Assembly: GCA_009783695.1 (NCBI GenBank)
Contig: WRCY01000004.1
Coordinates: forward strand, 8-64,007
Direction of reading: 5' to 3'
Length of the DNA stretch: 64,000 nucleotides
DNA from: Oscillospiraceae bacterium
GTDB taxonomy: Bacteria > Bacillota > Clostridia > Oscillospirales > Ruminococcaceae
In this document: one piece after another, positions 4,345 through 51,469 of the stretch
Layout of the letters: the number at the start of each line of letters is the position of its first letter
Numbering within the stretch: position 1 is the stretch's first letter
Notes under the pieces: model-generated
What the model saw: the letters and a program-made list of their open reading frames with translations, nothing else
What the model was told of the DNA's origin: nothing
Databases searched by the model: none
Program-made: the position numbers and the translations under genes

Positions 4345-5272
4345 CTTAAAGGAGACGGCGGAGTTGCTTCTCGCAAGTGACAACTTCGTCATAATCTGCC
4401 ACGCCTCGCCTGACGGCGACACGCTCGGCGGTGCGTTTGCTTTGTGCGGAGCGCTGCAAAAACTGCAGAAGCGCGCAAAGGTACGAGTCCCGGAAGAAGT
4501 TTCCGAACGCTTTAATTATCTTAAAAGCGGCATTGAGGAGCAGGAGTTCAGCGAGGAATTCATCATCACTGTAGACGTTGCGGACGCGGCTCTGCTCGGC
4601 AGCTTGCAGGACAAGTATCCGGTGCCTGACCTGTGTATCGACCACCATGTTTCAAACACCGGCTATACAAAGAATCTGCTTCTCGACAGTGAGGCGGCGG
4701 CGGCGTGCGAGATTGTTTTCGAGCTTATAAAGCTGCTCGGCAGCGGTATTATAAGCAGTGAGATAGCCTCATGCCTGTACACCGGCATCTCCACGGACAC
4801 CGGCTGCTTCCGCTTCTCAAACACCACGGCCGCTTCGCACAGAATCACCGCAGAGCTCATGGAGTACGGATTTGACTGCGCGGGGCTCAACTATCTGCTT
4901 TTTGAAATGCGCACGAAACAGCGCATAGAGCTTGAAAAAAAAGCGCTCGAAAGCGCCGAGTTTTATTTCAGCGGGCGTTGCGCGATGATTACCCTGACCG
5001 GGGAAATGCTGAAAGCCGCGGACGACGAGGATATAAATGCCATCAGCTCGATGCCCAGGCAGATTGACGGCGTCGAGGTGGGCGTGACATTCAAGCAGAA
5101 AGAAGAGGGCGTCTGGAAAGTTTCAATCCGTACCAAAAACTATATGAATGCACAGGTAATCTGCGCAAAATTCGGCGGCGGCGGACACCAGCGTGCCGCA
5201 GGCTGCAGGATTACCGGCGATATGCAGGACTGTAAAACAAAAATACTTACAGAAATAGAGCGACATATATAA
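4328..5272 (+). CDS. nrnA: DHH/DHHA1 phosphoesterase (NrnA-type oligoribonuclease/pAp phosphatase)
   Basis: DGDTLGG, DHH and GGGH motifs. Start moved to the ATG at 4328 (MSQAISLKE), in frame with ORF 4253. Confidence 0.85.
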   Translation: MSQAISLKETAELLLASDNFVIICHASPDGDTLGGAFALCGALQKLQKRAKVRVPEEVSERFNYLKSGIEEQEFSEEFIITVDVADAALLGSLQDKYPVPDLCIDHHVSNTGYTKNLLLDSEAAAACEIVFELIKLLGSGIISSEIASCLYTGISTDTGCFRFSNTTAASHRITAELMEYGFDCAGLNYLLFEMRTKQRIELEKKALESAEFYFSGRCAMITLTGEMLKAADDEDINAISSMPRQIDGVEVGVTFKQKEEGVWKVSIRTKNYMNAQVICAKFGGGGHQRAAGCRITGDMQDCKTKILTEIERHI

Positions 5273-18648: not shown

Positions 18649-19842
18649 ATGTCAAAAACACTCGGCACTATCTCGAGGGGAGTAAAGGCACCGATTATCA
18701 AAGAGGGCGACAACCTGGCTGAAATAGTCGTAAGCAGCGTGCTCGGGGCGGCACACGAGAACAATTTCACGCTCCTTGACCGCGATGTCGTCGCCGTCAA
18801 GGAATCAATTGTAGCCCGCGCACAAGGCAACTACGCCACCGTGCAGGATATAGCCGGCGACATTAAACAAAAATTCGGCGCAGACGCCGAAATAGGCGTT
18901 GTTTTCCCGATTCTCTCCCGCAACAGGTTCGCAATCGCCCTGCGCGGGATTGCGCTCGGAGCAAAAAAAATATATCTCATGCTCAGCTACCCATCCGACG
19001 AAGTCGGAAACGCGCTGATAACGACAGAGCAGTTAGTCGAAAGCGGCGTGAACCCGTATGCGGACGTGCTTAACGAGGCGAGGTTCAGGGAGCTTTTCGG
19101 CTATGAAAAGCATATGTTCACGGGCGTCGACTACATCGAGTACTACAAGGAGCTGATTACCGAAGCGGGCGCGGAGGCGGAGGTTATCTTCGCCAACAAC
19201 CCGACAGCGATTCTGACCTACACCAAGGACGTCATCTGCGCGGATATCCACACCCGCAAGCAGACTAAAGAAAAGCTCATAAACGCAGGAGCGAACAGGG
19301 TTTACGGGCTGGATAATATTTTAAGCAGCCCGGTGAACAACTCCGGCTTTAACCCCGAATACGGCGTGCTCGGCTTCAACAAGGCGACCGAGGATAAAAT
19401 CAAGCTGTTCCCGCGTGACTGCAACCGGTTTGTCAGCGATACTGCCGAGCTGTTCTACGCAAAAACAGGCAAAAGAATCGAGGTCATGATTTACGGCGAC
19501 GGCGCGTTTAAAGACCCTGTGGGCTTCATCTGGGAGCTCGCCGACCCTGTTGTCTGCCCCGCCTACACCGGCGGGCTCGCGGGCAAGACAAACGAAATTA
19601 AGCTCAAATACTTCGCAGACAACGAGTTCTCAGAGCTTTCGGGCGATGAGCTTGAAAGCGCGATTTCCGAGCGGATTAAAAACAAGAAAGATGACTTAAA
19701 AGGCGACATGGCGGCTGAGGGCACGACCCCGCGCTACCTCACAGACCTGCTCGGCTCGCTTGCAGACCTGACGTCCGGCAGCGGCGACAAGGGAACGCCG
19801 ATTGTGCTGGTGCAGGGGTATTTTGATAACTTTTCAAATTAA
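18649..19842 (+). CDS. F420-0:gamma-glutamyl ligase (CofE)-like family protein
   Basis: The N-terminus GVKAPIIKEGDNLAEIV...LLDRDVVAVKESIVARAQG resembles CofE-type ligases. The 397 aa length is longer than canonical CofE. Confidence 0.6.
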   Translation: MSKTLGTISRGVKAPIIKEGDNLAEIVVSSVLGAAHENNFTLLDRDVVAVKESIVARAQGNYATVQDIAGDIKQKFGADAEIGVVFPILSRNRFAIALRGIALGAKKIYLMLSYPSDEVGNALITTEQLVESGVNPYADVLNEARFRELFGYEKHMFTGVDYIEYYKELITEAGAEAEVIFANNPTAILTYTKDVICADIHTRKQTKEKLINAGANRVYGLDNILSSPVNNSGFNPEYGVLGFNKATEDKIKLFPRDCNRFVSDTAELFYAKTGKRIEVMIYGDGAFKDPVGFIWELADPVVCPAYTGGLAGKTNEIKLKYFADNEFSELSGDELESAISERIKNKKDDLKGDMAAEGTTPRYLTDLLGSLADLTSGSGDKGTPIVLVQGYFDNFSN

Positions 19843-37544: not shown

Positions 37545-38660
37545 ATGATTTATTTTGATAACGCCGCTTCAACCAAGCCGTGCAGGGAGGCGACTGAAGC
37601 TTTTGCCCGTGCCGCAGCCCATAATTATGCCAATCCGTCCTCGCTGCACAAGGGCGGGATTGAAGCCGAAAAAATCATCAGTGCGGCAAGGAAAGCGATT
37701 CTCCGGGAGCTGCCGGGCGGCGGCAGTCTCGTCTTTACGTCCGGCGGGACTGAAAGCAATAACCTCGCGCTGCTGGGCATAAAAGCCCCGAAAGGTGAAA
37801 AACAACGCAAAATTATAACCACCGCGATCGAGCACCCGTCGGTTGCCAATCCGCTTGATAAAATTGAGCAGGACGGCTTTTCAGGCTTGTATTCAGCGAC
37901 TGTTCTGCGGCTTTCGCCGGCTGCGGGACAAAGCTTCGAGGACAGGATTATCGCCGCCGTTGACCAGGACGTGCACATGATTAGCGTGATGGCGGTCAAC
38001 AGCGAAACCGGCTTTATCATCGACACGGTTAAAATATACGAGGCGGTGAAGAGCCGCTTCCCGAAATGTATCGTGCATACCGACGCCGTGCAGGGCTTCA
38101 TGAAAATCCCCGTAAACGGAGATTTAATCAGCATCAGCGCGCATAAAATCCACGGCATTAAAGGCGTGGGCGGGCTGTTTGTGCGGGATAATATAAGGCT
38201 CAGCCCGCTTTATTACGGCGGCGGGCAGCAGGGCGGACTGCGCCCGGGCACCGAGCCTGCCGAGCTGATTGCTGCTTTCGGCGCGGCGGTGGAAAATTAT
38301 AACTATAATCACACGCATTTCACGCAGCTTTCAAAGCATTTATCGAAACTTTTGGAGGATTTCGACGGTGTTAATTATAAGCGCAACAGCCGCGATAATC
38401 TGCCACACATCGTAAATTTCTCGGTAAACGGCGTGAAAAGCGAGATTCTACTGCACTGCTTAGCTGAAAGCGATATATTTGTGTCGAGCGGCTCGGCATG
38501 CGCGAGAGGCAAAAAAAGCCCGTCCCTGCTTGCGTTCGGCGTAAAGGAAAAGGACGCGGACAGCGCGCTGCGCCTCAGCTTCTCGCATGAGAACAACACA
38601 GATGAAATTGAGAAGTTTGTTGAAGTGTTAAAAGCGGGAATTAAAAGATTTAAAAGATAG
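37545..38660 (+). CDS. Cysteine desulfurase (NifS/IscS/NifZ family, class V aminotransferase)
   Basis: FTSGGTESNN, the PLP lysine in SAHKIHG and the active-site SSGSAC. Paired with thiI, as NifZ-ThiI are in Bacillus. Confidence 0.92.
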   Translation: MIYFDNAASTKPCREATEAFARAAAHNYANPSSLHKGGIEAEKIISAARKAILRELPGGGSLVFTSGGTESNNLALLGIKAPKGEKQRKIITTAIEHPSVANPLDKIEQDGFSGLYSATVLRLSPAAGQSFEDRIIAAVDQDVHMISVMAVNSETGFIIDTVKIYEAVKSRFPKCIVHTDAVQGFMKIPVNGDLISISAHKIHGIKGVGGLFVRDNIRLSPLYYGGGQQGGLRPGTEPAELIAAFGAAVENYNYNHTHFTQLSKHLSKLLEDFDGVNYKRNSRDNLPHIVNFSVNGVKSEILLHCLAESDIFVSSGSACARGKKSPSLLAFGVKEKDADSALRLSFSHENNTDEIEKFVEVLKAGIKRFKR

Positions 38661-46285: not shown

Positions 46286-46289
46286 ATAT

Positions 46290-46372
46290 GCGGATATGGC
46301 GGAATGGCAGACGCGCATGGTTCAGGTCCATGTCTAAGCAATTAGGTGGAGGTTCAAGTCCTCTTATCCGCA
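46290..46372 (+). tRNA. tRNA-Leu (anticodon CAG)
   Basis: Hand-folded cloverleaf: acceptor GCGGATA/TATCCGC, anticodon stem CATGG/CCATG with loop TTCAGGT, a long variable arm, and T-arm GGAGG-TTCAAGT-CCTCT. No CCA is encoded. Confidence 0.9.
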
Positions 46373-46409
46373 GGAATGAGAATCAAAGACATAAACACAT
46401 ATGAAATTT

Positions 46410-46440
46410 GGAGTCCGAAATTCGGACTCCTTTTGATTTT
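46410..46440 (+). terminator. Intrinsic terminator after tRNA-Leu
   Basis: ggagtccgaaattcggactcc followed by ttttgatttt. Confidence 0.88.
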
Positions 46441-46581
46441 ATCTGCATTTGTCAAAATTAACGCGAGAATCGAAAATACTAAATTTGGAAGCGTAAAACG
46501 CTCGTAATAAATACGACTAAAGTGCCTTACTTAAACCTTTAGCTAATTTATATATATTTTAATAAATTATTAATTCCCCTC

Positions 46582-46610
46582 TTGACATTATAACGCAAAT
46601 CCGTTATAAT
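46582..46610 (+). promoter_or_regulatory. Consensus sigma-A-type promoter
   Basis: TTGACA (46582-46587), 17-nt spacer, TATAAT (46605-46610). Confidence 0.75.
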
Positions 46611-46629
46611 TAATATAGAGGTGATTACG

Positions 46630-47198
46630 ATGGATTTAAACTTAGTTTTAAAAGAAAAAAATATTTCAAAATATAAACTCTCAAAAATAAGCGGTATACC
46701 TTTTACCACTGTCAGCGAAATTACAACGGGCAAGTCAAAAATTAAAAATTGCACAGGTGAAACGCTTTATAAATTAGCGAAAGCGTTAAATGTGACGATG
46801 GAAGATTTACTTTCGGAATGCATGGAGAACCGTCCGGAATTTGAGTGGTTTAAAAGCGAAGCATGCCATAGGGTCAAGCGCGAGGGTGATTTAGATTTTA
46901 TTATTAATGTATTAGAATCATGCGAAATTCGGAAATTGTATGAAAAAAATGGTATCCCGAAAGCCTTTATCTGCTTGCAATGGTGGATTATCTAAGCAGA
47001 GAGAACGATTTACTAATTTGTTCGGATTATGCAGACATTCGCAGATTGCGTATGAAAAACATCATTTACCCTGCTGGAATATTAATATTATGTAGTGTAC
47101 ATGGGGATGAAAGTTATAAAGAAAGAAGCCTAAAAAAAGCCATTCCTGAATTTCTGCGCCATAATATCGTAGAAGCGGAGATAAGAAATGTTTGCTAA
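46630..47198 (+). pseudogene. XRE-HTH protein with a C-terminal domain, split by a -1 frameshift at an A7 tract (46943-46949)
   Basis: ORFs 46621-46995 and 46980-47198 join smoothly if one A is added (...LYEKKWYPESLYLLAMVDYLSREN...). HTH motif KYKLSKISGIPFTTVSEI. Confidence 0.7.
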
Positions 47199-47897
47199 TT
47201 TTGAATTTACGAAGGAAACGCTTGATATTTGCTTAAAAGAACTCGATAAAGAGTTCCGCAGGCGCAACGGCATAAAAACACACGCTGACATTATACTGAT
47301 TGGCGGTGCTTCTGTTCTTATAAATTATGGTTTTCGGGATAAAACTACCGATGCTGACGCAATAATCAGAGCTTCATCTGTGATGAAAGAGGCGATTTTC
47401 TGCGTCGCCGATAATTTTAACCTACCGAACGATTGGTTTAATCAAGATTTTAAAAAGACAGATTCTTACTCCGAAAAACTATTCAAGATTGCTTCCCGCT
47501 ACAGAACATTCTCAAATGTTTTACATGTATGGACTGTCGCCGCCGAATATTTAATTGCTATGAAGTTATTAAGCGGCAAGCTATATAAATATGATTTGTC
47601 TGATATTATCGGGATTTTGTGGGAACATGAAAAAAAGACGCGTCGATAAGCAGAGATATGATTATGAAAGCCGTTAAAATGCTTTATAATCAACCCCTTT
47701 CTAAAGAATCTGCAACATTTATTGACAAGGTTTTAAATTCGGAAGATTATGAAAAGTTTTATTTTGATTCACGGGAGAGTGAGCGCGAGGGTAAAGAAAT
47801 TTTAGATTCCTTTAGAGAGAACAATCCCGACTCAAAAGGAGTTAAAGCTAACGAGATTATAGAGCGGGCAAGACGAAAAAAGGATTCCGATGGATAA
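47188..47897 (+). pseudogene. Nucleotidyltransferase-fold protein (DUF6036/AbiEii-like; tentative), split by a -1 frameshift at an A7 tract (47630-47636)
   Basis: LIGGASVLINYGF-x6-DADAI resembles the G[GS]-x(9-13)-DxD minimal NTase motif. ORFs 47188-47649 and 47658-47897 join as ...WEHEKKDASISRDMIMKAV... The start overlaps the upstream stop codon (ATGTTTGCTAA). Confidence 0.6.
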
Positions 47898-47967
47898 TAG
47901 TCTATAAATTTCTGTAATTTAGAGATTGTTTTTTGATAGTATTTATGATGTAATGGTGAAAATTGAG

Positions 47968-49410
47968 TTATGTCATTTCAACATATGTTGCGGTTGGAAT
48001 CACAATATATCTGCTGTTAGCTGGGAAATCATTGAGGCGGTATGTTTCAATGATGTATTGATTCTTGCCGTCAAAGCGAATCGTAACCGACTTCGAGTAA
48101 TCCACATCGCTCTGCTCTTGCTCGTTAATAATTAGACTTGCTCTCGTTTCTTGCATAATCGCAAACGTAGTTTCAAAGCCAATTCCACCGCCACCCGACT
48201 TAGCGTGAGTGGTCACTCGCTCCGCTCCGAGTCGTACCAACGTATCAACCTCAAACGGAATACCGCTATCCAATACGGTGAACTCGTAATGTTCCCCCGA
48301 CACACCGATAACAACCGTAATACTGCGGAAAGTGTTATCACTGACATTAACCGCCTTTTTCGCGTCATTGAGGTGATTCACAATCAGAGTTTCTAACGCT
48401 CCCTGCTTAATAATATTATCGACCATATACTTGATACTGCCGCTCGTCATGACGTTAAACGCAATCTTCTCAGCGGCGAACTGCCGTGCATAATACTCAA
48501 ACAAATTGTCGATTGCTACTATGTTTGTGGACGGCAGAGTGGCTTTCCCCTTGATTTTATCTAACTCCCCCTCCCAATCAGATTGCAATTCTTGAAGAGC
48601 CTCTGCCAATGGAGTCCCCACAACTACACCTTCCATAACTTTCAATCTGTCAGTGATATTATGGATTGCAGACGACTTTTCACGGTAAAGCCTGTTTAAC
48701 TCCTCATTCCTCGCCCTTTCCTCAAGATACAGCTTTTCATAATGATTTGTCGTATTTTGTCGAACTTTCTTTACTTGGAACATTGTAATCAATCTCCTTA
48801 TAAGTATATAAATACCGACTCCAGCAATAAGAACACCTGAGATATATAAGAGCCCGTCGAAATACTTTTCAGATTGAACACTTATATTAACCCACGTGAC
48901 AAGAATTAAGATAACACCTGTGAAAAATAAAGCTGCAACAATTGTGAATTTATTAAATATAAATGAAAACCCTTTCTTAAAACGTCTGATACGGAATAAA
49001 AGGAAAGACAAAACAAACTGCATTATAGTTACAAATATATATAATAAAAAGTAGATGTGTTGGTTAACATTGAGGGCGGCATCTGTAATGTTCTCGCTAC
49101 TGAATAAAAACACAGATACTAAACTAATAAAAGTAATTGCTATGTAATGTAAAACATAACTGATACTAAATGATAACAGATATGCAGAAACTACTACTTC
49201 AAGTTTTTGTTTTGTTAAGAAAAAAACGAAGATAGTGGTCGTTATACATAAAAGTGCTCTATATAGTGAAAGCGGCATTAAAAAAGGTTTAATAAATAAT
49301 ACTGTCCATAACAAACACCATACTGCGATTAAGACTTTATGGCTTATGGCTGCATTATATTGAATAGACTTTGTAAAAATATAAAAAGAAGAAATTGTTA
49401 TGCTCATCAT
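47968..49410 (-). CDS. Membrane sensor histidine kinase, AgrC/HPK10-like GHKL type
   Basis: About six or seven N-terminal TM segments. H-box SSAIHNITD, N-box LIVNHLNDAKKA, G-box SGGGGIGF. A strong SD (AAGGGGGAG) sits about 33 nt upstream of the ATG, so an in-frame ATT start at 49440 is possible. Confidence 0.85.
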   Translation of the reverse strand: MMSITISSFYIFTKSIQYNAAISHKVLIAVWCLLWTVLFIKPFLMPLSLYRALLCITTTIFVFFLTKQKLEVVVSAYLLSFSISYVLHYIAITFISLVSVFLFSSENITDAALNVNQHIYFLLYIFVTIMQFVLSFLLFRIRRFKKGFSFIFNKFTIVAALFFTGVILILVTWVNISVQSEKYFDGLLYISGVLIAGVGIYILIRRLITMFQVKKVRQNTTNHYEKLYLEERARNEELNRLYREKSSAIHNITDRLKVMEGVVVGTPLAEALQELQSDWEGELDKIKGKATLPSTNIVAIDNLFEYYARQFAAEKIAFNVMTSGSIKYMVDNIIKQGALETLIVNHLNDAKKAVNVSDNTFRSITVVIGVSGEHYEFTVLDSGIPFEVDTLVRLGAERVTTHAKSGGGGIGFETTFAIMQETRASLIINEQEQSDVDYSKSVTIRFDGKNQYIIETYRLNDFPANSRYIVIPTATYVEMT

Positions 49411-49517
49411 AACGATGGCATTAATCCATAACGAATAAATGAGAGCTCCCCCTTTTTCTTAGTAATGATTTATTAACATTCGAATAAATCATATATATTT
49501 GAATTTTAGAATATAAC

Positions 49518-50324
49518 TTAAAACATATCACGACGGATTTTATCAGTGTAATAATGGATAAACTCGGTGGGAGTCGGTGTGCCTTTATCCTTTCTGACGG
49601 GAGCGGTATAGCGTTTCAGCAGTTCGTCTATGTCGTTTGCGTTCTTCCATGCATCATTAATCGCCGTCTGTATGGCGCGGATTACATTGTCATAGTTGTT
49701 TTTCTGGGATTTGGAAACGTCTTGTAAAACCGTTTCGGAATCCTTATCTCCCTTGCTTATAAGCAGATATATTGATTCCTCTATGTATTTCCGTCCTTTC
49801 AACCTTATGGAAATGCCGAACGCATCTAATTCGGCTTTGATTCTGCTTATAATGCGGGTTTTGAGTTCTTCGGGTGTTTCAATTGTTGTGATTGCAGCGT
49901 TTCTACTACCTTGCAGATGATAGAATTCACGGAATCTGAGCAAGTGTCTAATCACCATTTCGGGGCAGTAACTCTGTTGTAACTTGTAAAAAATCCAGTT
50001 GAGGTCATACTTTGCGTGAAGGTGGGTGTGCACGGTGTCGTTGCGGTTGCGGGTGGTTATGACGACAATAGGGCGAATACTGAACTCGGTTTTATAGAAA
50101 TCCTCTAAGAAATCGTAACCCGAACCTGCACCTGTGTTCAACTCCAAGTCTAAAATGACCGCCTCCGGCAGTTTGTTCCTGACAAGTTCAAGCCCCTTGT
50201 CGCTCTTATTTGTCATTCCGACGAAGACAATGTCAGTTCTCGTGCTTGCGTAATCGGCGAAATCCCTGCAAGCCGCAACATCGTCCTCAATCAGAACTAT
50301 TTTCATTGGTTTTTGCTTATCCAT
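49518..50324 (-). CDS. Response regulator with a Spo0A C-terminal-type DNA-binding domain
   Basis: Receiver domain (LIEDD, ILDLEL acceptor Asp, VVITT). The C-terminus IRLKGRKYIEESIYLL...NVIRAIQTAINDAWKN...TPTPTEFIHYYTDKI parallels Spo0A (...RVERAIRHAIEVAWSRG...KPTNSEFIAMVADKL). Start at 50324 is preceded by the SD gaaaagga. Confidence 0.85.
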   Translation of the reverse strand: MDKQKPMKIVLIEDDVAACRDFADYASTRTDIVFVGMTNKSDKGLELVRNKLPEAVILDLELNTGAGSGYDFLEDFYKTEFSIRPIVVITTRNRNDTVHTHLHAKYDLNWIFYKLQQSYCPEMVIRHLLRFREFYHLQGSRNAAITTIETPEELKTRIISRIKAELDAFGISIRLKGRKYIEESIYLLISKGDKDSETVLQDVSKSQKNNYDNVIRAIQTAINDAWKNANDIDELLKRYTAPVRKDKGTPTPTEFIHYYTDKIRRDMF

Positions 50325-50538
50325 TGTTAAAATCCTTTTCAACTTCATTGAACTTCATCGCGGAACGTATGTAAATACAATGCTTATTGTGGTATCATGC
50401 TTAATAGATAGGGTATTTCATTACGTTAGTTGATAAAAAAATGTAATGAAAAATAAATAATTAAGATTAAGATGTTTAAGGCATTGCTGAATTCATTGAT
50501 TTGCCCGTCAATGAAAACAATTGTTCCCTTTGCTTGGT

Positions 50539-50637
50539 TCAGTTATTTTTGTCGTTATGGTTGAGTAAGTAATCAATCAGTTTCATTAATAGCATAGCAA
50601 AAGCTATACTTAGCATTATAGCTTCATAAAATGACAT
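50539..50637 (-). CDS. 32-aa hydrophobic peptide (Hol-Tox-like small membrane peptide; not in the ORF track)
   Basis: Hand translation: MSFYEAIMLSIAFAMLLMKLIDYLLNHNDKNN. Strong SD aagggggacggcaaaATG. First gene of the peptide-RR-HK transcription unit. Confidence 0.6.
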   Translation of the reverse strand: MSFYEAIMLSIAFAMLLMKLIDYLLNHNDKNN

Positions 50638-50717
50638 TTTGCCGTCCCCCTTTCTTTAGAGATGTGTGGGGGAGGTCAATTGTTTTTATTCAGCAATGCC
50701 GTAAACACCTTGCTATA

Positions 50718-50746
50718 ATTATCGCATAAAAAATATTTTTTGTCAA
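50718..50746 (-). promoter_or_regulatory. Near-consensus extended -10 promoter for the peptide-RR-HK unit
   Basis: Minus strand: TTGACA (50746-50741), 17-nt spacer, TGcGATAAT (-10 hexamer at 50723-50718). The -35 box sits in the palindrome gtcaatactttttt/aaaaaagtattgac. Confidence 0.6.
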
Positions 50747-50775
50747 TACTTTTTCCAAAAAAGTATTGACTTTTT

Positions 50776-50962
50776 AATTAATAATCTGTGTATCCCATAA
50801 TAACAATCAATTTGCTTTTAAAATGCAGTATTTATGGGCTTTAAAGAATTTCACGGTGTCATTTATGTAATATATGATTTAAATTCACGTATTTATAACC
50901 TAATAAACCTTGATATAATCAATGTTTGATTGTAATGTTGTTATGGGATACGCAGAATTAAT
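50776..50962. repeat. TIR-bounded 187-bp element (MITE or inverton-like)
   Basis: Left arm ATTAATAATCTGTGTATCCCATAATAACAATCAA (50776-50810). Right arm at 50926-50962, reverse complement ATTAATTCTGCGTATCCCATAACAACATTACAATCAA. The shared core is TCTGYGTATCCCATAAYAACA. Confidence 0.65.
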
Positions 50963-51049
50963 AAAATTAAAACGAGTTAAATTCATCATTATACCTTATT
51001 TTTGGTATAACGCTTCTACAGAGAAGGATTATTTTTACGTTAATTCGTT

Positions 51050-51202
51050 TTATTTTATCAAGACTTTTCTTACCGTAGTATAATAGCAACCATATACTCT
51101 GGCAATCGCCGCCATACTCATACCGCTCTGATACTTTTTCACAACATGATCTTTCTCGGCATCAGTAAAATATCTCTGCTTCTGGGTAATTTTACGAACC
51201 AT
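51050..51202 (-). CDS. Small HTH protein (50 aa)
   Basis: MVRKITQKQRYFTDAEKDHVVKKYQSGMSMAAIARVYGCYYTTVRKVLIK. SD ggagagga lies 8 nt upstream. The longer ORF to 51454 runs through a plus-strand promoter and is doubtful. Confidence 0.55.
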   Translation of the reverse strand: MVRKITQKQRYFTDAEKDHVVKKYQSGMSMAAIARVYGCYYTTVRKVLIK

Positions 51203-51440
51203 TTTAGTATCCTCTCCATAAGGACTCTCTTCTTTTTCCTTGACAAATTCCCCTTTTCCACTTATACTATCATTAAGAATAGCATTGCGGTAAGTTAAAG
51301 CGGTCTTGATTGAATTGTTTAAGTACGGTGCTGATATCCGCAGGCGGCATACCGCCGCACCAATCCCGTCATCCCAAGGGCTGACGGGACTTTTATATTG
51401 CCCGTCTGACACGTTTCTAAGCCACAAGATTAATTTTTTC

Positions 51441-51469
51441 TTGACAAACGGCACATAAACGAATATAAT
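51441..51469 (+). promoter_or_regulatory. Consensus sigma-A-type promoter
   Basis: TTGACA (51441-51446), 17-nt spacer, TATAAT (51464-51469). The leader contains a 13-bp perfect hairpin aattgaaaactat-aaa-atagttttcaatt (51502-51530). Confidence 0.75.

Follow-up and report, generated by a model that had tools for sequence, protein, structure and literature searches.

In a stretch of 64,000 nucleotides (nt) from an Oscillospiraceae bacterium (assembly GCA_009783695.1, contig WRCY01000004.1, positions 8 to 64,007 of the forward strand; hereafter called the window), two overlapping genes at 46630 to 47897 encode a protein with an XRE-type helix-turn-helix (HTH) and a nucleotidyltransferase of the DUF6036 family, respectively, and each is broken at a run of seven adenines (A7), beyond which its reading continues in the -1 frame. 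It is likely that both breaks are genuine and recent, that one base was deleted from each of two fragile A8 tracts, and that the toxin-antitoxin-like cassette, acquired horizontally, is in a state of early pseudogenisation or strong attenuation. Among the explanations offered in a first-pass annotation of this DNA (programmed -1 frameshifting, slipped-strand phase variation and parallel pseudogenisation), the last is the best supported: relatives carry two intact genes, unbroken in 80 of 80 loci, and against the nearest relative (locus L001) single-base indels are seen only at the A runs.

Two genes, each split at an A run

The pair, entirely on the forward strand, is laid out as follows:

46630 to 46995, + strand: gene 1, 0-frame piece; XRE-type HTH (residues 1-66) and start of the C-terminal domain, native to residue 106
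46943 to 46949, + strand: A7 run 1, frameshift point of gene 1; the alignment with L001 has a 1-nt gap at this very place
46944 to 47198, + strand: gene 1, -1-frame piece; remainder of the C-terminal domain, 83 residues and stop
47188 to 47649, + strand: gene 2, 0-frame piece; DUF6036 nucleotidyltransferase core with GG and DxD motifs, native to residue 150
47630 to 47636, + strand: A7 run 2, frameshift point of gene 2; 1-nt gap against L001, 0-frame heptamer A AAA AAG
47631 to 47897, + strand: gene 2, -1-frame piece; C-terminal helical domain, 88 residues and stop

Gene 1 begins at the ATG at 46630, behind the ribosome-binding site (RBS) AGAGGTGA, and its 0 frame reads ...LYEK, then 15 out-of-frame residues and a stop at 46993-46995; its -1 frame is shut by the TGA at 46941-46943, open from 46944 (KKWYPESLYLLAMVDYLSREN...) and ended by the TAA at 47196-47198. 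Gene 2 begins at the ATG at 47188 and reads ...WEHEKK, then TRR and a stop at 47647-47649, and its -1 frame is shut by the TGA at 47628-47630, open from 47631 (KKDASISRDMIMKAV...) and ended by the TAA at 47895-47897. The slippery heptamers in the 0 frame are A AAA AAT (46943-46950) and A AAA AAG (47630-47637), respectively, and the two genes overlap by 11 nt (ATGTTTGCTAA, 47188-47198). The coordinates, frames and overlap given in the first-pass annotation were thereby confirmed. It had also stressed that in both genes the -1 frame is closed by a TGA right before the run and opens at the run; this is so, but the TGA is part of the string ATGAAAAAAA that the two sites share, and hence is no independent coincidence. 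The string is shared because both sites carry the codons [T/C]AT GAA AAA AA_ (Tyr/His-Glu-Lys-Lys), and it occurs 53 times genome-wide. The cassette has a guanine-plus-cytosine (GC) content of 35.9% and contains four A7 runs, two of them native and in frame and two broken.

Protein alignments and tblastn placed all four pieces colinear with intact single-gene homologues, which bears out the earlier remark that the joined proteins read through smoothly. The -1-frame piece of gene 1 is 71% identical to residues 106-188 of the XRE relative P0123 and holds the most conserved block, WYPESLYLLAMVDYLSREN, and that of gene 2 is 57% identical to residues 149-232 of the transferase relative P0003.

Protein searches produced 3766 matches for the transferase and 138 for the XRE protein, with 119 relatives listed for each. 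Among those listed, 117 of the 119 transferases are 218-268 amino acids (aa) long and 114 of the 119 XRE proteins 178-208 aa (mostly exactly 189); from these lengths, the intact genes of relatives appear to encode about 189 aa and about 235 aa, respectively. The loci were compared using the best 80 of 529 from species-representative genomes, picked by score, a choice biased towards intact copies. In each of the 80 the transferase gene directly follows the XRE gene, and both genes are single unbroken matches throughout (the XRE gene being cut by the locus edge in three); compared with these loci, two matches per gene in different frames occur in the window only. In 79 of 79 relatives the transferase gene starts before the XRE gene has ended (in 66 with the identical 11-nt overlap), and the neighbours are unrelated, with 138 flanking open reading frames (ORFs) falling into 127 clusters. 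To offset the score-based choice of loci, 400 genomes sampled evenly across the order were searched as well; matches came from 17 other genomes, with 13 full-length copies without stops and five distant paralogues. The first-pass annotation had allowed for homologues in the form of four separate genes; what was found is two intact ones.

Partial or shifted copies were also seen. In genome G025 (L082, G025:C1, ~1554-2412), residues 1-188 of the XRE protein are intact (66% identity to P0123) and the transferase match ends after residue 100, and this locus appears to be another decaying copy of the cassette. The metagenomic XRE relative P0124, on a 621-nt contig from another sample, has a shifted tail as in the window, at the same spot. 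A further metagenomic XRE relative, P0205, is frameshifted in the same ten-codon region as the window and P0124, and diverges just after WYPES.

The DNA alignment against L001, which has 77-80% protein identity and 84% column identity to the window, contains exactly two 1-nt gaps inside the genes, one per A run. At these sites L001 reads GAG AAA AAG TGG and GAA AAG AAA AGT, respectively. An in-frame A8 is present at the gene 1 site in L065 (TATGAAAAAAAATGG; TAT GAA AAA AAA TGG) and at the gene 2 site in L004 (CATCAAAAAAAAGAC; CAT CAA AAA AAA GAC). Because of the single gaps against L001 and the in-frame A8 runs at the same places in L065 and L004, both sites were most likely A8 in the ancestor of the window, and a single A was later lost at each; the ancestral gene 1 site would have read GAA AAA AAA TGG, and for gene 2 the loss of a G from ...AAG GAC would yield the identical sequence. 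Tracts of this kind are unusual in the family and fragile: the longest A run at the site is 8 in 1 of 78 relatives (gene 1) and in 1 of 80 (gene 2), never both together, and a homopolymer of 8 anywhere in the cassette occurs in 3 of 80 relatives, with longer ones in 0 of 80. In the genome as a whole, A runs number 4580 (A5), 1375 (A6), 433 (A7), 51 (A8) and 3 (A9); the drop from A7 to A8 is about 8-fold, as against about 3-fold at the earlier steps, which suggests selection against runs of 8 or more.

No lesion other than those at the two A runs was found in either gene. Synonymous sites are saturated relative to L001 (proportion of differing synonymous sites, pS, 0.71-0.92), so that a ratio of nonsynonymous to synonymous rates (dN/dS) is not calibratable; the proportion of differing nonsynonymous sites (pN) is low in all four segments, the post-shift parts having pN of 0.185 and 0.272 and pS of 0.749 and 0.706, respectively. 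Beyond the shift, the transferase shares 55.2% identity with P0003, compared with 40.7-47.1% for intact relatives of equal N-terminal identity. Given the lack of other lesions, the low pN and the high post-shift identity, the lesions would be recent or the downstream parts still in use, and the data fit both equally.

Proteins, promoter and origin of the cassette

The identities assigned to the two proteins in the first-pass annotation held up against Pfam. The N-terminal piece of gene 1 matches HTH_26 (PF13443; 3.8e-12, 46.7 bits, cut-off 22) and HTH_3 (PF01381; 1.2e-8, 35.3 bits, cut-off 23), and that of gene 2 matches PF19502 (DUF6036; 1.5e-9, 38.3 bits, gathering cut-off 23.6), to which the intact relative P0003 scores 34.9 bits. 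DUF6036 had been among the transferase classes suggested earlier, and stands; AbiEii, suggested beside it, is not matched by sequence, as Pfam at E-values up to 0.1 or 1 gave only DUF6036 and one weak unrelated family, placing the transferase outside DUF1814/AbiEii. Searches of PADLOC, NCBIfam and PDB-sequence profiles likewise gave no transferase class beyond DUF6036. The transferase carries the motifs LIGGASVL and TTDADAI, in which G39, G40 and D55 are invariant and D57 nearly so among 25 relatives; these four are the putative catalytic residues, judging by the fold class.

Structure models were obtained with a mean predicted local distance difference test score (pLDDT) of 87.5 for the transferase, which shows a nucleotidyltransferase core and a C-terminal helical domain, and of 89.3 for the XRE protein. 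The closest folds to the transferase model in VIA-align were MenT1 (Z 8.1, root-mean-square deviation 4.8, 155 residues aligned), the AbiEi C-terminal domain (7.6), MenT3 (7.3) and MenT4 (7.0), a Z of about 8 being middling; the best Foldseek E-value, 1.8e-2, was weak. Residues 1-66 of the XRE model match SinR, C.AhdI, P22 c2 and HigA at Z 7.4-10.3, and its C-terminal domain gave no named family or solved-fold match in the searches made, not having been folded and searched alone. The complex of intact relatives was modelled with a score of 0.61, compared with 0.00 for the best of three controls, with at least 79% contact agreement between runs and a partner pLDDT of at least 78; the mark set for this score was reached by 116 of 157 solved complexes and by 2 of 215 mismatched pairs. 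The model supports binding between the XRE protein and the transferase of intact relatives, through an interface that comprises XRE residues 68-189 (tightest at 149-158) and transferase residues 131-141 and 177-232, plus 50-55 beside the DxD motif.

The following features lie upstream of gene 1:

46289 to 46373, + strand: tRNA-Leu(CAG), directly upstream of the cassette (ARAGORN; Rfam tRNA 53.4 bits)
46410 to 46430, + strand: terminator-like hairpin between the tRNA and the cassette, with a 9-pair stem (6 GC pairs) followed by a T tract
46582 to 46610, + strand: promoter TTGACA-17-TATAAT with 12 of 12 consensus matches, in the same layout as in L001

Inside the promoter, at 46589-46608, lies the palindrome TATAACG-N6-CGTTATA, probably the operator of the XRE protein. 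With the window counted in, the palindrome (at most one mismatch per arm) occurs in 43 of 78 upstream regions and a promoter-like site in 67 of 78.

The cassette is present once in the genome, within a stretch of 28-45% GC (46.5-51.5 kb) in a genome of 47% GC. When 24 same-genus genomes were searched with the DNA, the only matches were tRNA-like stretches and, in one genome (G010), 61 nt of the conserved block; none of the 26 same-family genomes in the even sample gave a transferase match in a protein search; and synteny with the two closest same-genus genomes stops after a SpoIID-like gene, just upstream of the cassette. The low GC, the single copy, the absence from the same-genus and same-family genomes searched and the end of synteny together indicate that the cassette was acquired horizontally. 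No convincing attachment-site-like (att-like) repeat of the tRNA end was found (best 14 of 17, at 51328), the tRNA-flank loci L082-L088 had no neighbouring genes in common with the window, and a scan of JGI metagenomes gave no near-identical copy among its 9 loci, the best of which (80% identity) was L001's contig. In an Rfam search of the region, tRNA was the only family matched. Downstream, at 47968-51454 on the minus strand, are genes whose products are 480, 276 and 134 aa long: the first matches HATPase_c weakly, the second is a response regulator that has a Spo0A C-terminal domain and the third is an HTH protein. Together they look like an accessory signalling unit, possibly acquired along with the cassette.

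The intact XRE and DUF6036 cassette probably works as a toxin-antitoxin pair, given the gene overlap in 79 of 79 relatives, the unrelated neighbours, the promoter palindrome, the MenT-like folds, the complex model and the state of G025. Its working would be of the AbiE/MenAT type, with a promoter and operator of its own: the promoter would be under repression by the XRE protein, whose C-terminal domain would also bind the transferase, and the transferase would be the growth-inhibiting partner. In the window copy, an A-rich choice of codons for Glu-Lys-Lys would have given rise to the two A8 tracts, each of which then lost one A:T pair, most likely by replication slippage. The predicted products are truncated, to 106+15 and 150+3 residues, respectively, and the frameshifts at XRE residue 106 and transferase residue 150 would strip off most of the modelled interface. 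Translation of gene 1 would now terminate about 190 nt ahead of the start of gene 2, and for this reason the conserved stop-start coupling would be lost; with the interface regions removed and the coupling gone, the cassette would be inactivated or strongly attenuated. With its HTH retained, the truncated XRE protein might continue to act as a repressor of the promoter, and full-length protein, if any is made, would come from low-level unprogrammed slippage only. If the transferase is toxic, its disabling must have come before the loss of the XRE protein or together with it; the transferase-first order is consistent with G025, where the XRE protein is intact and the transferase truncated.

Artefact, recoding, slippage or decay

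The genome is a metagenome bin of 97 contigs (2.23 Mb), and its probable source run is a termite-gut metagenome in which all sampled words of the window stretch are present. One Logan contig of this run, 4208 nt long with a mean word depth of 7.12, spans 46343-48200 and is identical to the window there, free of gaps, and no indel variant at the cassette is listed among the run's Logan contigs. Two other termite-gut runs (X2 and X3) contain conserved parts of relatives only. At 46943-47011, a 70-nt stretch encoding WYPESLYLLAMVDYLSREN, many contigs of other organisms from all three runs match, with a summed depth of up to 276 relative to about 7 in the flanks, a sign of strong conservation at the DNA level.

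In the assembly, 99 A8/T8 runs are retained, so A8 was not systematically collapsed. By a crude frame-switch test, 27 of 801 A7/T7 runs (3.4%) pass, compared with 2.0% of random sites, a mild enrichment. Of the 27, two lie in the cassette itself; the remaining 25 and one A8 candidate were followed up and sorted as follows:

14 candidates: ordinary gene junctions, judged by eye from start codon and RBS context
5 candidates: two different complete genes
4 candidates: within a longer intact ORF on the opposite strand
3 candidates (C27:24610, C31:7510, C48:10394): short ORFs meet, with no informative Pfam match and one weak sub-threshold match at C27

None of the 26 proved to be a single family broken into two, and elsewhere in the genome no A7/T7 run was shown to split a gene. 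For the ORF downstream of the C7 kinase gene, a search of the genus gave nothing, and a stop, an RBS and an ATG are present there. The first-pass annotation had judged a blanket homopolymer sequencing error less likely from A runs that stay in frame in other genes of the window, and this assessment is strengthened by the retained A8/T8 runs and by the second assembly, which has A7 at both sites. The in-frame control runs are real, with coordinates that were off by 1-7 nt: they are an A8 at 4935-4942, an A8 at 18963-18970 and an A7 at 38511-38517, within open frames of 342, 418 and 389 codons, respectively.

A sequencing or assembly artefact would mean that the true genome has A8 at both sites and that the consensus dropped one base from each homopolymer. 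Homopolymer errors produce lesions of this type, the genome is a many-contig metagenome bin of low depth, the A-run counts given above fall steeply from A7 to A8, and both assemblies rest on the same reads, so that a systematic read error could affect both. Yet a second assembler returned the identical sequence, A7 and not the A8 that the earlier annotation had named as the mark of an assembly error, and other A7/T7 runs were not shown to split genes. Two random errors among 801 runs would, moreover, very rarely both fall in one 1.3-kb cassette. The only homopolymer frameshifts demonstrable in the genome occur in the same cassette, at a distance of 690 nt from each other; linked biology accounts for this clustering and random error does not, and an artefact is regarded as very improbable. 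Evolved -1 ribosomal frameshifting of the dnaX/IS3 type, giving a short and a long product per gene in a set ratio, would account for heptamers in the right register, 0-frame stops 15 and 3 codons past the sites and -1 frames that are open from the run onward. Against it, the split form was seen in 0 of the 80 best loci and in 0 of the 13 full-length copies of the even sample, and neither the slippery sequences nor the A tracts are conserved. Windows of 40 nt and 80 nt after the sites fold no better than shuffles (z 0.08, -1.64, 0.12 and 0.62; 200 shuffles each), no Shine-Dalgarno-like GGAGG lies just upstream of either run, and no Rfam family other than tRNA matched in the region. The genome encodes both tRNA-Lys(UUU) and tRNA-Lys(CUU); passages of PMC5009743 trace the shift-prone behaviour of A_AAA_AAG in E. 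coli to that species having a single tRNA-Lys, and describe an organism with two lysine tRNAs as using another route. The heptamer of gene 1, A AAA AAT, is a poor bacterial slip site since A_AAA_AAC, its nearest tested analogue, is weak in E. coli. Programmed frameshifting, the first explanation listed in the first-pass annotation, is thus not supported and is held to be extremely improbable.

A cassette that is leaky or reversible deserves more weight, and is nevertheless rather unlikely: its A7 tracts would permit low expression by unprogrammed transcriptional or ribosomal slippage, or would form an A7/A8 replication-slippage on/off switch of an Abi-like module. Several observations that favour it also weigh against simple decay. 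The promoter (12 of 12) and palindrome are intact, both downstream frames are open to their normal stops and need the same +1-base correction, and the post-shift parts are conserved as in intact relatives, free of extra decay, as fits very recent lesions or slippage-based use. Single-base deletions can be leaky, and the heptamer of gene 2 is the classic A AAA AAG, which in E. coli shifts more readily than any other according to passages of PMC5009743; aggregate -1 suppression of 1-bp deletions came to 1-10% in E. coli test genes, as given in an excerpt of PMC10861913, and some full-length product may arise from such unprogrammed suppression. The shift at the same site in P0124 may mean either that a useful state has recurred or that the spot is prone to mutation, and the read evidence consists of contigs from one run at about 7x depth, in which a minority A8 allele would not show. 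Set against this, no A8 variant contig is listed and the tracts are as rare among relatives as described above, the two A8 never occurring together. The runs of 7 are also shorter than the roughly 9 nt from which, in the sections of PMC1088944 concerned, selection against slippage-prone A/T runs is evident in many genomes and which serves here as the threshold for transcriptional slippage. By the argument in the part of PMC5009743 cited above, tRNA-Lys(CUU) should reduce slipping on AAG, and with A AAA AAT at site 1 ribosomal slipping would restore the presumed antitoxin less well than the presumed toxin. A bolder form, in which an Abi-like defence or addiction module is kept near-off by a double switch, with a slippage trickle of full-length proteins, reversion to A8 re-arming a subpopulation and P0124 as a second example of the selected state, is improbable. 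Recent loss of one base from each A8 tract, with early pseudogenisation or strong attenuation of the cassette, therefore stays the preferred account.

Significance and comparison with known systems

The frameshifts themselves are an ordinary phenomenon of a known kind. They carry a caution, in that a textbook slippery heptamer and an open -1 frame, even twice in succession, may amount to nothing more than mutational decay at a gene pair's most fragile sites, and comparison with relatives settles decay versus recoding cheaply. More interesting than the frameshifts is the XRE and DUF6036 cassette, which is abundant in gut Clostridia (529 loci and 3766 protein matches) and belongs to an uncharacterised family, always in the form of a coupled pair, with a palindrome in its promoter and a confidently modelled interface; a full-text literature search found no paper mentioning DUF6036. 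If the cassette is a true toxin-antitoxin or defence module, the window shows how such modules begin to die, by removal of the interface and uncoupling of translation.

Among recoded genes the nearest comparison is dnaX of E. coli, where, as passages of PMC5009743 describe, A AAA AAG is combined with an upstream Shine-Dalgarno sequence and a downstream hairpin. The heptamer of gene 2 is identical and in the same register, as the first-pass annotation had pointed out, but the sites of the cassette have neither stimulator nor conservation, and the host genome has a second tRNA-Lys. The shifted frame of dnaX, moreover, ends at once, whereas that of the cassette would carry 85 more residues.

In the phase-variable contingency loci of Haemophilus, Neisseria and Campylobacter, which switch by slipped-strand mispairing, a homopolymer within the coding region sets the frame by its length, as it would here. 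In contrast to those loci, the tracts of the cassette are short and not conserved, no length polymorphism was seen in the contigs, and two tracts would have to revert. On this evidence the phase variation suggested in the first-pass annotation is neither supported nor contradicted. Poly-A frameshift pseudogenes that are partly rescued by polymerase slippage, among them the 'authentic frameshift' genes of Baranov et al. (2005), are described for Buchnera and Blochmannia in portions of PMC1088944 and PMC5009743, and in them too a single-base change in an A run breaks an otherwise intact gene, whose frame slippage would restore. Their rescue occurs, according to the same portions, at runs of about 9 or more, and the runs of the cassette are 7; the host of the window is also no reduced endosymbiont, and no other gene so broken was found in its genome.

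The closest parallels for the intact cassette are AbiE (AbiEi/AbiEii) of Streptococcus agalactiae and MenAT (MenA/MenT1-4) of Mycobacterium tuberculosis, nucleotidyltransferase toxin-antitoxin pairs as presented in passages of PMC7450476, PMC10435456 and PMC11375011. In the cassette, too, a DNA-binding partner comes first and a protein of nucleotidyltransferase fold second, in overlapping genes with their own promoter and palindrome; the best folds for the transferase model are MenT1, the AbiEi C-terminal domain, MenT3 and MenT4 (at the middling Z of 8.1-7.0), the modelled complex supports binding of the partners, and the genes, adjacent in 80 of the 80 best loci, overlapping in 79 of 79 and set between unrelated flanks, have the appearance of a unit moving together. 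The transferase differs in belonging to PF19502 (DUF6036) and not to DUF1814/AbiEii, with no match in PADLOC, and the partner has an XRE-type HTH where AbiEi has a winged HTH. Taken together, the cassette would resemble AbiE and MenAT in its working, and by sequence it is no member of that family.

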